This document shows positions 1-4,670 of a stretch of 4,670 nucleotides of DNA, piece by piece. The position numbers and the translations under genes were made by a program. How positions within the stretch are numbered: position 1 is the stretch's first letter; each line of letters starts with the position of its first letter. The notes beneath the pieces were generated by a model that was given only the letters and a program-made list of their open reading frames with translations, did no database searches and had not been told where the DNA came from. Source of the DNA: a virus. Its lineage: Duplodnaviria > Heunggongvirae > Uroviricota > Caudoviricetes. The stretch lies in IMG/VR virus record IMGVR_UViG_2778261383_000001, one strand, 5' to 3'.

Positions 1-1065
1 TGTTGGCGTTCCGGTCAGTGCAGGACTATTTAAGGGCGCTTTCTTGTTCGTTTCATCCATTACCGCCTTAACAGCTTTCGATGTCGCGGCCAGTGTTTCA
101 GACGTGCTGTTGGTGGCACTACTGAGCTGGACTATCCCTTTTTGTGCCGTCGTGGCGTCCTGAGCGGTATATTTTGCGTTAGCAAGGTCATACGCGGCCT
201 TTACTGCTTTCGGCGTTGCAGCCTGCGTTTCAGACGTGCTGTTGGTGGCGCTACTGAGCTGGACAAGGCCTTTTCGCGTCGTGCTGGCATCCTGCGCAGT
301 ATATTTACCGTTAGCAAGGTCATACGCGGCCTTTACTGCTTTCGGCGTTGCAGCCTGCGTTTCAGACGTGCTGTTGGTGGCGCTACTGAGCTGGACAAGG
401 CCTTTTCGCGTCGTGCTGGCATCCTGCGCAGTATATTTACCGTTAGCAAGGTCATACGCGGCCTTTACTGCTTTCGGCGTTGCAGCCTGCGTTTCAGACA
501 CGCTGTTAGTGGCGCTACTGAGTTGAACAAAGCCTTTTGCGGTCAGCGAGGCGTCCGGGTGACGTCGTGACTGTTCATGCTCTTTCAGTTTGTCATCCAC
601 GTAATCCACTGTGGCCATCACCATGGTGTTATCCACGGTAAGCACCACGGTGGCAGTGCTGGATACGGTCAGAATGGTGCGAAATGTTTGTGCACGACCG
701 GACCCTTCGGCAACGGCTGGCTTGTAACTTTCGGCAGTATTGCCCACCGCGATTAAATCGCCGTGCTCATCAAATACACCAATTTCCCGGATCCAGAATC
801 CGCCCGTTTCAGGAGGAATAACCAGCTCCGCAATAATGCGGTTCTGATGTGTTGCGTCCAGGATGACGCGATTAACAGTATGTCGCCACACCTCATGCAC
901 CAGACGGGTCTGCTTACTGTCTGGTGTGGGCAACGTGCCGCCACCGTCGCCCACGGCCATATGAGTCAGGCGGACAGGCTTACCATCTGGCGCGGCTGCC
1001 TGAGCTAATTTTTTGGCACCCGTATCGGTGATAACGGTTTTAAATTTACGTGTTGTGGTACTCAT
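1..1065 (-). CDS. H: Tail fibre protein (P2 gpH-like), N-terminal 355 codons; partial, 3' end lies beyond the left edge of the window
   Basis: ATG at 1065-1063 on the minus strand, 2 nt after the gpI stop (1068-1070). I translated the frame by hand and it stays open to position 1, which is why it is missing from the ORF track. N-terminus MSTTTRKFKTVITDTGAKKLAQAAAPDGKPVRLTHMAVGDGGGTLPTPDSKQTRLVHEVWRH...IIAELVIPPETGGFWIREIG...AESYKPAVAEGSGR...VDYVDDKLKEHEQSRRHPDASLTAKGF closely resembles the P2 H tail-fibre N-terminal domain as I remember it. It is followed by four ~44-aa phage tail fibre repeats (KGxVQLSSATNSTSETxAATPKAVKAAYDLA) and ends ...KAVMDETNKKAPLNSPALTGTPT at the window edge. Upstream SD is weak, so translational coupling to gpI is likely. 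Confidence 0.9.
   Translation of the reverse strand, partial: MSTTTRKFKTVITDTGAKKLAQAAAPDGKPVRLTHMAVGDGGGTLPTPDSKQTRLVHEVWRHTVNRVILDATHQNRIIAELVIPPETGGFWIREIGVFDEHGDLIAVGNTAESYKPAVAEGSGRAQTFRTILTVSSTATVVLTVDNTMVMATVDYVDDKLKEHEQSRRHPDASLTAKGFVQLSSATNSVSETQAATPKAVKAAYDLANGKYTAQDASTTRKGLVQLSSATNSTSETQAATPKAVKAAYDLANGKYTAQDASTTRKGLVQLSSATNSTSETQAATPKAVKAAYDLANAKYTAQDATTAQKGIVQLSSATNSTSETLAATSKAVKAVMDETNKKAPLNSPALTGTPT
58..555 (-). repeat. Tandem array of about four 132-bp (44-codon) units inside the tail-fibre CDS (phage tail fibre repeat); two central units are identical at the nucleotide level
   Basis: Direct comparison of x with x+132: the motif gtttcagac recurs at 95, 227, 359 and 491 on the plus strand, and ggtca at 186, 318 and 450. 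Positions 177..499 are perfectly periodic with period 132; the outer units are diverged. Encoded units: DASLTAKGFVQLSSATNSVSETQAATPKAVKAAYDLANGKYTAQ / DASTTRKGLVQLSSATNSTSETQAATPKAVKAAYDLANGKYTAQ / DASTTRKGLVQLSSATNSTSETQAATPKAVKAAYDLANAKYTAQ / DATTAQKGIVQLSSATNSTSETLAATSKAVKAVMDE... Confidence 0.92.
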
Positions 1066-1067
1066 GC

Positions 1068-1598
1068 TTAATCGTCCGGATAAATGGTAATGACTTCGCC
1101 GTCGTAAGTTGCTGCCGCCGCGAAAATATCTCCCTGAATCTCCTGAATGATATTCAGCCCTGTCATGTGGCGGCTGACCGGGCGGGCATCAGCAATCAAC
1201 CGCTCCATTTCCAGATACATTTCCTCCGTCACGCCACTGTCCAGCGTGCCGACTTCAACGGTAAATGTTCCCGGTTCTCCGCCGAACTCCCACCACTCAG
1301 ACACGCGAATGAGGTATCCCAGCGGCTCAATGGCCCGGCGCAGTGCGCTGATGGTCCCTTTGTGTCGGTGTATCAGCCATGCATCACGAATCACCTGTCG
1401 CTTTGTCTCTTCCGGCCAGTTGCGATCCCAGCGGTCAACGGAAAATGCCCAGGCGAGATAAGGCAGCAGATGCACCGGGCAGGTGTCCGGTGACCACAGC
1501 GTGTTGAGGTCTACCGGGATGTCTGTAATGCGCGCTCCGACAGCTTCGGCGCAACGCATGAAATTGCTGGCTGATGGCGGTAACAGTGAATTACTCAT
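1068..1598 (-). CDS. I: Baseplate/tail protein I (P2 gpI-like), 176 aa
   Basis: ORF-track entry 1068..1631, trimmed to the internal ATG at 1598-1596. The 1631 start is a GTG with no obvious SD, whereas the ATG has AGGTGG (plus 1604..1609) 5 nt upstream. Product MSNSLLPPSASNFMRCAEAV...LWSPDTCPVHLLPYLAWAFSVDRWDRNWPEETKRQVIRDAWLIHRHKGTISALRRAIEPLGYLI...MERLIADARPVSRHMTGLNI...TYDGEVITIYPDD matches the P2 gpI family, and 176 aa equals the P2 gpI length as I remember it. Overlaps the J stop by 8 nt. Confidence 0.9.
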   Translation of the reverse strand: MSNSLLPPSASNFMRCAEAVGARITDIPVDLNTLWSPDTCPVHLLPYLAWAFSVDRWDRNWPEETKRQVIRDAWLIHRHKGTISALRRAIEPLGYLIRVSEWWEFGGEPGTFTVEVGTLDSGVTEEMYLEMERLIADARPVSRHMTGLNIIQEIQGDIFAAAATYDGEVITIYPDD

Positions 1599-2487
1599 TA
1601 CGCCCACCTTCGCTGATGGTGAATGACTCACAGCGCGCCGCCTGTATGTCGCTGATGGCCATATTCTGTGTGGGTTCGATTATCTCCACGCGTTGCACGC
1701 CGTGCACATGAAGTGCGGCAGCAATGGCTGACAACGCCACGTCCTGACCAATAAGCCCCTGCTCAGCCAGCCACTTCCTGAACGACGATTCAGCCGCAGC
1801 CAGAATAGGTTCGGATTCCGGGCCGGGGTAAAAGTACAGTTTTGCATTCAGCCGCCATGTCACGATGCTGGCGCTCTGTACGGTCAGTCGGTCGGCCACC
1901 GGGCGGGTATCCTCTGCATTCAGAACGGCGCGAACGGTATTAAGCAACGCCTCCGTTGCTGTGCCGTCGCCTTCAGTGGACAGAATGGAAACCGTCACAC
2001 AGGCCGGAGACGGGCTGATGGCCCGCGCATCACGCACCAGACCGCTGGCGCTGCGTGCAAAATACTCGTATGCACCTGACGGGCCAGCAACACTCAGGCC
2101 GTCATACGCCCGCTGCGCCCGCAGTCTCAGCGAGGTGTCGCTCTCCATCACCGCGTCGGTGGTATCCGTTGCCGGAGTGATAACCAGGCGCTTTGTGTTC
2201 ATATTGCCCGCGAGGTTGTCCAGGTTTGTCCCTGAACCGTGGCTTAACATGCAGGCGCGTGCGCCCTCGTTAACCCGCTGGCGTAACAGCATTTCACGAA
2301 ACGACATGGTTTGAGCGATAACGTTCAGGGGTTCTGATTCCAGCTCCAGCGCGGCGGAGACGGCTTCACGCTGTTCGGCAGGATAGGACGCAATCATCAT
2401 GGCCTTTGTGTCAGCCAGAATTGCCTCAAAATCAGGCTCCGCGATGATGGCGGGTTCCGGTAACTGGGAAAGATCAACAGCAGGCAT
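1591..2487 (-). CDS. J: Baseplate assembly protein J (P2 gpJ-like; T4 gp6-like baseplate wedge), 298 aa
   Basis: ATG start 2487-2485, 3 nt after the W stop; stop 1591-1593. MPAVDLSQLPEPAIIAEPDFEAILADTKA...ELESEPLNVIA...RQRVNEGARACML...SLRLRAQRAYDGLSVAGPSGAYEYFARSASGLV...SPSPACVTVSILS...RPVADRLTVQSASIV...LYFYPGPESEPILAAA...LHVHGVQRVEI is collinear with P2 gpJ as I recall it (P2 J is about 302 aa). Confidence 0.93.
   Translation of the reverse strand: MPAVDLSQLPEPAIIAEPDFEAILADTKAMMIASYPAEQREAVSAALELESEPLNVIAQTMSFREMLLRQRVNEGARACMLSHGSGTNLDNLAGNMNTKRLVITPATDTTDAVMESDTSLRLRAQRAYDGLSVAGPSGAYEYFARSASGLVRDARAISPSPACVTVSILSTEGDGTATEALLNTVRAVLNAEDTRPVADRLTVQSASIVTWRLNAKLYFYPGPESEPILAAAESSFRKWLAEQGLIGQDVALSAIAAALHVHGVQRVEIIEPTQNMAISDIQAARCESFTISEGGRNE
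1604..1609 (-). promoter_or_regulatory. Shine-Dalgarno (AGGTGG) for the gpI ATG start, embedded in the 3' end of J
   Basis: Minus-strand AGGTGGGCGTA-ATG: AGGTGG 5 nt upstream of the ATG at 1598. Confidence 0.5.
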
Positions 2488-2490
2488 GAT

Positions 2491-2841
2491 TTACTCTCTC
2501 AGCGTGATGGTTAATTCAACATTCTGCATGGTCTGCATGACAGTGCCCGACAGCGTCACCCCGGCGCGGCCTCCTGCCTTCCAGACAACGTCGATGGCGT
2601 CCAGGGCAATGCGGGGTTCCCATCGTGTCAGCGCAATCACGGCAGCACTCATGCATTGCAGACGCGTGGTGTTATTCATGGGTTCGTCAATCAAATCAGG
2701 CACAAGGCTGCCATATTCCCGTCGCATAACCCGGCTTGCCAGCGGGGTGATCAGGATGTCCCTGACTGACTGTTTCAGGTGCTCCATATCGTTCAGGTTT
2801 CCCGTCCCGTCCGGGTTCATTCCTGTGTAGCGGGTTGTCAC
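2491..2841 (-). CDS. W: Baseplate protein W (P2 gpW-like; gp25/lysozyme-like baseplate wedge family), 116 aa
   Basis: GTG start 2841-2839 with a strong SD AGGAGG (plus 2848..2853) 6 nt upstream; overlaps the V stop in a GTGA junction. MTTRYTGMNPDG...SVRDILITPLASRVMRREYGSLVPDLIDEPMN...IALTRWEPRIALDAIDVV resembles P2 gpW (MTARYLGMNR..., about 115 aa) from memory. Confidence 0.9.
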   Translation of the reverse strand: MTTRYTGMNPDGTGNLNDMEHLKQSVRDILITPLASRVMRREYGSLVPDLIDEPMNNTTRLQCMSAAVIALTRWEPRIALDAIDVVWKAGGRAGVTLSGTVMQTMQNVELTITLRE

Positions 2842-3419
2842 TGCGGGCCTCCTGTCGAATCGCTGCCACCTTTAACGCCACCGTGCTTATGCGTATGCAC
2901 GGTAATGCCGTTTGAGGTGAAATTGCCGCCGCTGTGCGTGATATTGCCGCTCATCTTTCCCTCTTTTGTGACGTCAAGCGTCGCCGTTCTCAGAAGGTTT
3001 GTGCATTCCACGACGGGCGTATCCAGTGTCACGCTGACGGATGCCTGCAGGGTGGCTGTTTTCATGCCGCTGGCGCTCAGTGCGCCAGCGTCTGCGTCGT
3101 AGCGGAACACCGCGCCATCCGGCGCGCTGACCACGATTTCTTTCAGGCTTTTGCCGGGGGCCGGACTGGCATCACTCCACAGGCTGCCAATTATCATGGC
3201 GGTTTCCGGGTTGCCGCCAATGCAGGCAATTACCACCTGTTCGCCTGGTGATGGCGGCAGCCACACATTGAAGGCTCCCGCGCGCGTGGTGTTCCAGCGC
3301 AACCAGCCTGTTTCCAGTTCGCCGCTGCGAACGCGCACGCGCCAGGACTTCTCATCAACTTCAGAGATGATCCCGGTGCGGATGATGTTGCTCAGCAGTC
3401 GCATGAGTTCTGCGCTCAC
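2838..3419 (-). CDS. V: Baseplate assembly protein V / central spike (P2 gpV-like, gp5-type OB-fold spike), 193 aa
   Basis: GTG start 3419-3417 with SD GGAGG (plus 3427..3431) 7 nt upstream; overlaps the S stop (GTGA). MSAELMRLLSNIIRTGIISEVD...GWLRWNTTRAGAFNVWLPPSPGEQVVIACIGGNPETAMIIGSLWSD...APDGAVFRYDADAGALSASGMKTATLQASVSVTLDTPVVECTNLL...GNITHSGGNFTSNGITVHTHKHGG matches the gpV spike family, including the conserved C-terminal HTHKH tip motif. An alternative internal ATG lies at 3404 but lacks an SD. Confidence 0.9.
   Translation of the reverse strand: MSAELMRLLSNIIRTGIISEVDEKSWRVRVRSGELETGWLRWNTTRAGAFNVWLPPSPGEQVVIACIGGNPETAMIIGSLWSDASPAPGKSLKEIVVSAPDGAVFRYDADAGALSASGMKTATLQASVSVTLDTPVVECTNLLRTATLDVTKEGKMSGNITHSGGNFTSNGITVHTHKHGGVKGGSDSTGGPQ
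2848..2853 (-). promoter_or_regulatory. Shine-Dalgarno (AGGAGG) for the gpW GTG start, embedded in the 3' end of V
   Basis: Minus-strand ACAGGAGGCCCGCA-GTG: AGGAGG with 6-nt spacing to the GTG at 2841. Confidence 0.55.
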
Positions 3420-4051
3420 CGTACAGCCTCCGCAATCCGGCCCAGCACCGTGTTATAAATCAGGCGCTCATCTGCCTGGCTGATACCCAACAGCTCACGT
3501 ACCGGGTAATCGGTGAAAATGCCCGGCGCAACCTGATCGCGCTCACCGAACTGATGAACGCGTGCAATACGTGCGGCCACGCCGCTGTAACCCACCGTCA
3601 CACCGGAGGCATCTGCACGGGCTTTCAGGTAGCGGGCGGTGCGCAGTTTTACGAACATGGGGACGCGCTTTGTGCTGTCCTGGTTGATGCGCCGGGTGCG
3701 TATTTCCAGAAAACGGTCGATGTCATCCCGGTAAAACGTGCGGATATTGTTTTTATCCTCATCCCACCCGGTAATGGTTCGCCCGTATTTCCCTGTGTCG
3801 TGATGCCAGTTTTTCAGCGTGCGTGCTTCGTTATTCCAGATAAAGCGAATGCGCTCCTGTATCCGGGTTACGCGGCGTCTGCGTGGTGTCCATTCGGTCC
3901 CGTCCGGCGCTTTTTGTGACCGGATACGTGCCTGCTGGGCGCGACGTAAATCCTGTGCCAGCTTTCTGGCGATGTTATTGATGGCCTGCTGATTCAGGCT
4001 GTCGCGGATAGCCTCAAAGGTTTCATCCACGCGGGTGAATGCCTTATCCAT
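3416..4051 (-). CDS. S: Tail completion / virion morphogenesis protein (P2 gpS-like), 211 aa from the ATG (214 aa if the GTG at 4060 is used)
   Basis: ORF-track entry 3416..4060 begins with GTG. I prefer the ATG at 4051-4049, which gives an 8-nt overlap with the R stop, but both starts have weak SDs and the choice is uncertain. N-terminal LRRAQQARIRSQKAPDGTEWTPRRRR and C-terminal MFVKLRTARYLKARADA...GVAARIARVHQFGERDQVAPGIFTDYPVRELLGISQADERLIYNTVLGRIAE are typical of the gpS / phage virion morphogenesis family. The protein is longer than the ~150 aa I remember for P2 gpS. Confidence 0.8.
   Translation of the reverse strand: MDKAFTRVDETFEAIRDSLNQQAINNIARKLAQDLRRAQQARIRSQKAPDGTEWTPRRRRVTRIQERIRFIWNNEARTLKNWHHDTGKYGRTITGWDEDKNNIRTFYRDDIDRFLEIRTRRINQDSTKRVPMFVKLRTARYLKARADASGVTVGYSGVAARIARVHQFGERDQVAPGIFTDYPVRELLGISQADERLIYNTVLGRIAEAVR
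3427..3431 (-). promoter_or_regulatory. Shine-Dalgarno (GGAGG) for the gpV GTG start, embedded in the 3' end of S
   Basis: Minus-strand GGAGGCTGTACG-GTG: GGAGG with 7-nt spacing to the GTG at 3419. Confidence 0.55.
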
Positions 4052-4511
4052 CGCTTTCACCCCACGTCACATCCTGGAATACATGCGACCAGTCGCCTTC
4101 GGAAGAAGGCAGACGGGGTTTTGGCTCCGGCAGGTGTTCTGCCTGCGGTGTGCCCTGACTGTTGCGCGTGATGCGAACGCGTTCCCGCAGGGGGAGCGTA
4201 AACAGGAGATCGGCGCTGTCATCGTCATTGATAACGGCAGAAAATTTGATGTCCTGATTACGCTCCGGATTGAGCAACAACTGTGGCTGATTTTCGGATA
4301 ACCACGCCAGCAGCGGCAGCGTGAGGTCGTCCAGCTCTCCGGCGTAATCCATGACAAACATCACCATCTGATAGCGGTAAACAAACGAGGGCGCTTCTCC
4401 GGTCGTTTCAATGTTGCCGCTCTCCACGAAAATGGTGAATTTCTCGGGATTAGCCTGGCACCACCGACACCCATGAAGCATGGACTCTCGCAGACTGTTT
4501 GTCTTAAGCAT
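4044..4511 (-). CDS. R: Tail completion protein R (P2 gpR-like), 155 aa
   Basis: ATG 4511-4509 with SD GGAGAG (plus 4520..4525) 8 nt upstream; stop TAA at 4044-4046. MLKTNSLRESMLHGCRWCQANPEKFTIFVESGNIETTG...PLLAWLSENQP... has the same length (155 aa) and position (immediately upstream of S) as P2 gpR. The family assignment is from memory and synteny. Confidence 0.85.
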   Translation of the reverse strand: MLKTNSLRESMLHGCRWCQANPEKFTIFVESGNIETTGEAPSFVYRYQMVMFVMDYAGELDDLTLPLLAWLSENQPQLLLNPERNQDIKFSAVINDDDSADLLFTLPLRERVRITRNSQGTPQAEHLPEPKPRLPSSEGDWSHVFQDVTWGESDG

Positions 4512-4519
4512 CTGTTTTG

Positions 4520-4525
4520 CTCTCC
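4520..4525 (-). promoter_or_regulatory. Shine-Dalgarno (GGAGAG) for gpR
   Basis: Minus-strand GGAGAG, 8 nt upstream of the R ATG (4511), within the 23-nt intergenic gap. Confidence 0.55.
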
Positions 4526-4534
4526 TGCTCTTCC

Positions 4535-4670
4535 TTATGCTGCGGGATTATTGATTTCCAGCACCAGGCTGCCGATATCGACGCCGTACGCGGCATTTTT
4601 AGTGATATCAGTTAACGTCAGCGCATTCAGCCCCAGTGTCAGACTGTCTTTTATGACCTGGAATGCCGGG
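4535..4670 (-). CDS. 3' end of an upstream ORF (last 45 codons, 5' end outside the window); possibly a lysis-module gene by P2 synteny, identity unresolved
   Basis: Hand translation of the minus strand from 4669 gives ...PAFQVIKDSLTLGLNALTLTDITKNAAYGVDIGSLVLEINNPAA then TAA at 4537-4535, 23 nt before the R start codon. In P2 the genes upstream of R are lysB/lysC, but this fragment is too short and too unfamiliar for me to assign. Confidence 0.4.
   Translation of the reverse strand, partial: PAFQVIKDSLTLGLNALTLTDITKNAAYGVDIGSLVLEINNPAA

Follow-up and report, generated by a model that had tools for sequence, protein, structure and literature searches.

The tail-fibre protein of phage P2, gpH, is encoded after gpI and begins with a PF12571 domain, which is followed by units of the 'Phage tail fibre repeat' PF03406. 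The same family of 42- to 44-residue repeats (Pf2, or Phage_fiber_2) is found in lambda Stf, in fibre S of phage Mu and in collagen-like fibre proteins of prophages, where the units are single or scattered, in contrast to the tandem array described here. The repeat family was first noted in lambda Stf, and the structure of the repeat is poorly known (PMC3368898). Mu S carries one unit, which is present in the sequences of PDB entries 5yvq, 8ju3 and 9ki1, and the Mu fibre structure paper resolved the N-terminus of the fibre alone. In the literature that we searched, nothing specific was found on copy-number variation of fibre repeats, nor any copy-number series for the repeats of lambda Stf, Mu S or the collagen-like proteins.

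The DNA analysed here (the window, 4,670 nucleotides in all) corresponds, in reverse complement, to bases 1..4670 of the 6,691-bp contig PGHA01000059.1 in the draft assembly GCA_002886295.1, an accession for which the literature search returned no paper. Its closest described counterparts are the prophage of Escherichia coli EC958 (ST131), P88 and Escherichia phage 503458 (genus Xuanwuvirus), which share with the window the gene order R-S-V-W-J-I-H followed by fibre-assembly genes. P88 and 503458 are 96.6-97% identical in DNA over 4.3 kb of the window, in a comparison that covers 4.7 kb of the prophage. They have three repeat units where the window has four, as does H of the ST131 prophage (WP_021538277.1, 661 aa; 740 aa in the inverted form). 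P2 gpH resembles the fibre of the window in domain order and in its position after gpI, with about 80% DNA identity in the shared part, but it has two units, and its C-terminal receptor-binding part differs from that of the window prophage's fibre.

A preliminary description of the window, made from its letters, had proposed a very recent duplication of one 132-bp unit within the fibre repeats, and had added that long perfect repeats can be expanded or collapsed in assembly. We compared the array with those of relatives and with the structure of the source contig. With a probability of about 0.6, we conclude that the extra unit is a copy-number error by the assembler, an over-count of a loop, and not a feature of the genome.

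Results

Gene content of the window

All genes of the window lie on the minus strand in the P2 order R, S, V, W, J, I, then H. Open reading frames, the RefSeq annotation of EC958 and Pfam place gene R at 4511..4044, S at 4060..3416, V at 3419..2838, W at 2841..2491, J at 2487..1591 and I at 1598..1068. Public gene calls place the starts of V and S differently on the same DNA, giving products of 188 or 193 aa for V and of 211 or 214 aa for S. The first 355 codons of the tail-fibre gene H occupy 1..1065 (minus strand), with the ATG at 1065..1063, and the gene continues past the left end of the window; its full product on the source contig is a protein of 705 aa (WP_102776473.1). The N-terminal, baseplate-attachment domain PF12571 covers residues 6-153 (607..1050, minus strand; E = 3.1e-54). 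With this domain, a position directly downstream of gpI in the R-S-V-W-J-I-H order and a Caudo_TAP assembly gene after it, H is a fibre of the P2 gpH type. PF03406 was matched in four stretches of the H fragment (E = 2.9e-83; 273.7 bits against a cut-off of 22), spaced at 44 residues or 132 nt, and Pfam thereby bears out the earlier assignment of a gpH-like fibre with four 44-residue repeats. An AlphaFold single-sequence model of the 355-residue fragment had a mean pLDDT of 36; it displayed a repeating pattern of a short strand plus a helix and was not relied on.

Two open reading frames on the plus strand, 142..570 (142 aa) and 236..526 (96 aa), were considered as genes and rejected. They run antisense through the repeat with nothing in their support, and they are long because the repeat is without stop codons in those frames.

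At its right end (4535..4670, minus strand), the window covers the 3' end of a gene that encodes 625 aa, with the domains DUF1737, SASA and DUF6645, and that in full spans 7403..9280 of the compared locus L014. In the ST131-type prophage this gene sits between tail gene R and the lysis cassette, and it is missing from that site in EC361 and in two drafts, L197 and L198. Lambdoid prophages have a paralogue next to the holin, under the annotation 'SASA family carbohydrate esterase'. The domain set is that of the NanS-p sialate O-acetylesterases of Stx phages (PMC10462455), found here as cargo of a P2-like prophage.

The C-terminal segment of the fibre is invertible and provides alternative receptor-binding ends, the 661- and 740-aa forms, each known from 1,000 contigs or more. 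Near the invertible segment lie a resolvase/invertase gene and two fibre-assembly genes that oppose each other (L014 1..3933; L002; L015-L024), so that the fibre end of the ST131-type prophage is arranged like Mu G or P1 C. In prophages that are otherwise identical, IS1 was found inserted just downstream of or within the fibre region (L018 6345..7042; L187 5435..6081), which indicates that the fibre module is disrupted in some copies of the prophage.

Structure of the repeat array

Positions 177..367 match exactly at a period of 132, which makes 177..499 perfectly periodic over 323 nt, or 2x132+59; the preliminary description had placed this stretch correctly to the base. An exact match of 191 nt at a fixed offset cannot be due to chance. 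Tandem Repeats Finder reported a single array at 65..538, with a period of 132, 3.6 copies and 91% matches.

Unit alignment divides the array (minus strand) into unit 1 ('A', 433..564), unit 2 (301..432), unit 3 ('B', 169..300) and the last, diverged unit 4 ('C', 37..168), where A equals unit 1 and B equals unit 2 of the ST131 prophage. In the three-unit array of ST131, A and B have in common an exact 59-nt block (X; coding positions 567-625), and copies of X stand in the window at 441..499, 309..367 and 177..235. Alignment against EC958, P88, Shae_phiSM and EC361 identified unit 2 as the extra one. It is a B/A hybrid that is missing in the three-unit parent array, with its 5' part from B and its 3' end from A, and it reads ANGKY in place of ANAKY. 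The order in the window is A, B/A hybrid, B, C, and the periodic part is composed of X, loop, X, loop and X, a layout that accounts for the length of 2x132+59. Adjacent units had been described as identical. This is correct in the register in which 177-308 equals 309-440. In the protein register the junction falls within the unit, so that 2 nt and 1 aa distinguish unit 2 from unit 3.

The junction can be recognized by a diagnostic 63-mer, ACCGTTAGCAAGGTCATACGCGGCCTTTACTGCTTTCGGCGTTGCAGCCTGCGTTTCAGACGT (307..369), which consists of X between an A-type flank and a B-type flank and can be present in a genome only if the extra unit is real there. Among all sequences compared, it was found only in the window, in the source contig (L026) and in one metagenome contig (L025).

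A three-unit parent and a reciprocal two-unit allele

When one 132-bp unit is taken out of the window, the remainder agrees with the EC958 prophage base for base, at 4,538 of 4,538 positions. The region is found at 99% identity or more in about 220 complete E. coli genomes, most of them ST131, where it measures 4,538 bp rather than 4,670. Exact protein look-ups gave one contig only for the 705-aa four-unit protein and none for a 784-aa four-unit form, as against at least 1,000 contigs for each of the two three-unit forms. A UniRef label of 'n=11' on the 705-aa protein was set aside as a sign of multiple occurrences, since UniRef100 clusters merge fragments too.

The window thus has what a gain of one unit should leave behind, an otherwise identical parent without the unit (0 of 4,538 mismatches) and a junction inside a 59-nt block. 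Judged by the arrangement of bases, a hybrid joined within X is the product to be expected of unequal crossing-over or slippage. A real and very recent expansion by one unit in the isolate's prophage would therefore be a natural reading: unit 2 would have mispaired with unit 1 inside X, and a crossover between sister chromosomes or phage genomes, or slippage in replication, would have added the B/A hybrid. Its expected architecture (A, B/A, B, C, with a periodicity of 2x132+59) and its otherwise identical three-unit parent are both seen exactly. The reciprocal product is also found. A two-unit array with an A/B hybrid is encoded in proteins of 617 and 696 aa, on 52 and 15 contigs respectively, and its DNA is that of the window less 264 bp, free of mismatches over 4,301 bp. 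Its occurrences include a complete chromosome, AP026479.1, as well as assemblies built at k = 111 and k = 141, and phage Shae_phiSM has the same two-unit form; the reciprocal deletion in the ST131-type prophage is real.

The four-unit allele is distributed differently. None of the approximately 220 finished genomes with the prophage has it, and its single contig stands against at least 2,000 contigs with three units. We consider a real expansion a substantial possibility that nevertheless falls short of even odds. The earlier argument for it, that the copies have had no time to diverge, agrees with the identity at all 4,538 bases and with the junction in the 59-nt block, but it describes one of two readings, and the one that we estimate to be less likely.

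The unit of 132 nt corresponds to 44 codons, so the reading frame is kept and the array is not an on/off switch. Consistently, alleles of 2 to 8 units were all in frame, with none of the frame changes of a repeat-driven (phase-variable) switch.

Unit numbers and unit identity among relatives

Pfam counted two units in P2 gpH, three in P88, four each in EC361, O121 FWSEC0006 and a second P2 isolate record, and six in TW10722. U90 has four units by motif count, and distant relatives (Xenorhabdus, Photorhabdus and others) have one. The earlier remark that P2 H has fewer units is right for gpH (two versus four). Among close relatives in IMG/VR, 83 arrays contained 1 to 8 units each, in line with the proposal that such arrays change copy number. 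The preliminary description had allowed that the window would be unremarkable if identical neighbours were the norm in homologues. This was ruled out: adjacent unit pairs in these relatives have a median identity of 99/132, and only 3 of 136 pairs are identical.

All three identical pairs come from two contigs, L124 and L122, which have the TW10722 array plus one or two perfect units. Together they form a series of six (TW10722, a complete genome), seven (UViG_2585427737_000004) and eight units (UViG_2609459857_000006; both from IMG/VR), in which the insertion is at the longest block of identity, of 76 nt. This series is subject to the same ambiguity between a real event and an artefact as the window.

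Perfect extra units were also observed at shorter blocks, in cases brought up by a protein search. L197 and L198 have the architecture A-B/A-B-C and a perfect periodicity of 132+X, where X is 30 and 48 nt, respectively, and their hybrid unit bears the lineage-specific bases of unit 1. L196 has a perfect unit duplication with an X of 32. In the complete genome of EC416 (L199, NZ_AP027404.1 9060..), X is 23, the hybrid is of the C/B type and 287 nt are perfectly periodic, and the complete genome of EC361 encodes a protein of A-B/A-B-C architecture. EC416 and L196-L198 resemble the window in having exact extra 132-bp units joined in a local block of identity, the rest of the array being identical or nearly so. 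However, their blocks, of 23-48 nt, are too short to loop at k = 55, whereas that of the window is 59 nt long. Such perfect duplications, with differently placed hybrids and blocks of 23-48 nt, include one in a finished genome and indicate that real gain of units is recurrent in this fibre family. The A-B/A-B-C proteins of EC361, L197 and L198 (the latter two with blocks of 30 and 48 nt) and the 287-nt stretch of EC416 accordingly lend support to a real expansion in the window as well.

The comparison with relatives also bears on the age of the array. An older four-unit array could look the same if its middle units had been kept identical by gene conversion or by selection at the DNA level, and mosaic units in EC361 and U90 are suggestive of conversion. 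But the flanks of the window equal the three-unit allele at 4,538 of 4,538 bases, the limits of the periodic stretch coincide exactly with the borders of that allele's 59-nt block, and the median identity of 99/132 over the 136 pairs argues against general homogenisation. We rejected gene conversion as the cause of the identity on the flank identity and this median, and regard an old array as highly improbable.

Contig ends and the length of k

The last 55 nt of the source contig (4616..4670 of the window) match exactly the paralogous SASA esterase gene of lambdoid prophages. The contig shares exact identity with the paralogue from L014 7484 on and breaks off at 7538, which is 55 nt in; one more base breaks the match. 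From this end, a repeat boundary at 1034/1035 was predicted for the other end before inspection, and it was then found there: the contig ends at L014 980, 55 nt inside an exact repeat with a paralogous fibre-assembly gene, which is identical over 792..1034 and differs at 1035. Termination of both ends exactly 55 nt into repeats with paralogues indicates de Bruijn graph assembly with a final k of 55. In other drafts the break comes 111 nt into the SASA repeat, as would fit a k of 111. Repeats within the locus were rejected as the cause of the contig ends, which are explained by paralogues elsewhere in E. coli genomes.

Because the k of 55 does not exceed the 59-nt block X shared by the neighbouring units, A and B are fused in the graph and the array turns into a cycle whose copy number k-mers cannot fix. 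The earlier caution that the copy number might not be exact has in this way become the main issue for this short-read contig, with its k of 55 and its 59-nt block.

An exact 80-nt pattern of the hybrid unit had no match in IMG/VR or in the 24 loci compared, and a single match in metagenomes. The matching contig, L025 (metagenome ERZ857775), has 6x coverage and a SPAdes-style name; its sequence opens exactly 55 nt short of the end of X and includes two copies of the loop, a pattern that marks an unresolved cycle rather than independent support. The four-unit allele was absent from all 5,426 complete E. coli genomes searched, including the approximately 220 with the prophage at 99% identity or more. 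It was likewise absent from 10 places around an identical gpI, where only three-unit or disrupted fibres are found. In no finished genome or large-k assembly (k above 61) searched was the extra unit present.

Discussion

The extra unit is best explained by an over-count in assembly. The true locus would be the three-unit PF03406 array of the P88-like prophage of ST131, whose units 1 and 2 share the 59-nt X. In a graph with k = 55, blocks of at least 55 nt would merge to give a cycle that runs from the entry through X, a 73-nt loop and X again to the exit, and the number of passes round this cycle would be set by a heuristic, such as paired-read distance or coverage, and not by sequence. A loop resolver such as that of SPAdes would be expected to choose the count in this way. 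Two passes in place of one would produce a flawless 132-bp repeat with its junctions inside X, on a contig that is otherwise equal to the parent. The identity to a three-unit parent, the 59-nt block, the k of 55 and the absence of the allele elsewhere are all observed, and from them we infer that the heuristic miscounted.

The window shares with known de Bruijn copy-number miscounts a shared block at least as long as k, a flawless extra copy and contig ends that reveal k. It departs from them in direction: at tandem repeats, collapse or a break of the contig is the more usual error and expansion is rarer, whereas an expansion is seen here. Two points weigh against a miscount. Real events of the same kind have taken place at this locus and are demonstrably frequent over evolutionary time, as the two-unit allele and the arrays of EC416 and L196-L198 attest; and most k = 55 assemblies evidently arrive at the correct three units, which limits the error to a rate of roughly 1 in several hundred.

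Under either reading one expects a flawless copy whose junctions fall within X, and sequence alone therefore does not discriminate between the two. An expansion allele seen only in k = 55 assemblies is indistinguishable there from a loop miscount. The distribution of the allele, with one occurrence in the k = 55 assemblies and none in the more numerous assemblies able to resolve the array, favours a rare miscount roughly 3 to 1. The preliminary interpretation is thus partly supported, its own assembly caveat being the most likely explanation of the array. Either way the result is ordinary, a probable miscount by the assembler or another copy-number allele of a known fibre repeat.

If the extra unit is an artefact, the deposited 705-aa protein WP_102776473.1 is a product of assembly, and fibre repeat counts from short-read assemblies with small k are unfit for comparisons of host range or fibre length. 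The reading of k from the depth to which contig ends enter exact repeats is a check that can be reused for such cases.

If the allele is real, each chain of the fibre would gain 44 residues in its shaft, which joins the baseplate-attachment domain to the receptor-binding end, and the 191-nt perfect direct repeat so formed would itself be expected to be unstable. Its interest would be mild and for specialists, because gain and loss of repeats in a fibre shaft are expected and a change in phenotype is not known. The window would then supply the third member of a series of two, three and four units within one prophage of a pandemic E. coli clone. A broader view, to which we give little credence at present, would take the window as a real ST131 snapshot of a general process: the PF03406 array of P2-like fibres may be a length module that recurrently expands and contracts, between 1 and 8 units and at identity blocks of 23-76 nt within single clones, and that would tune the reach of the fibre through O-antigen or capsule.
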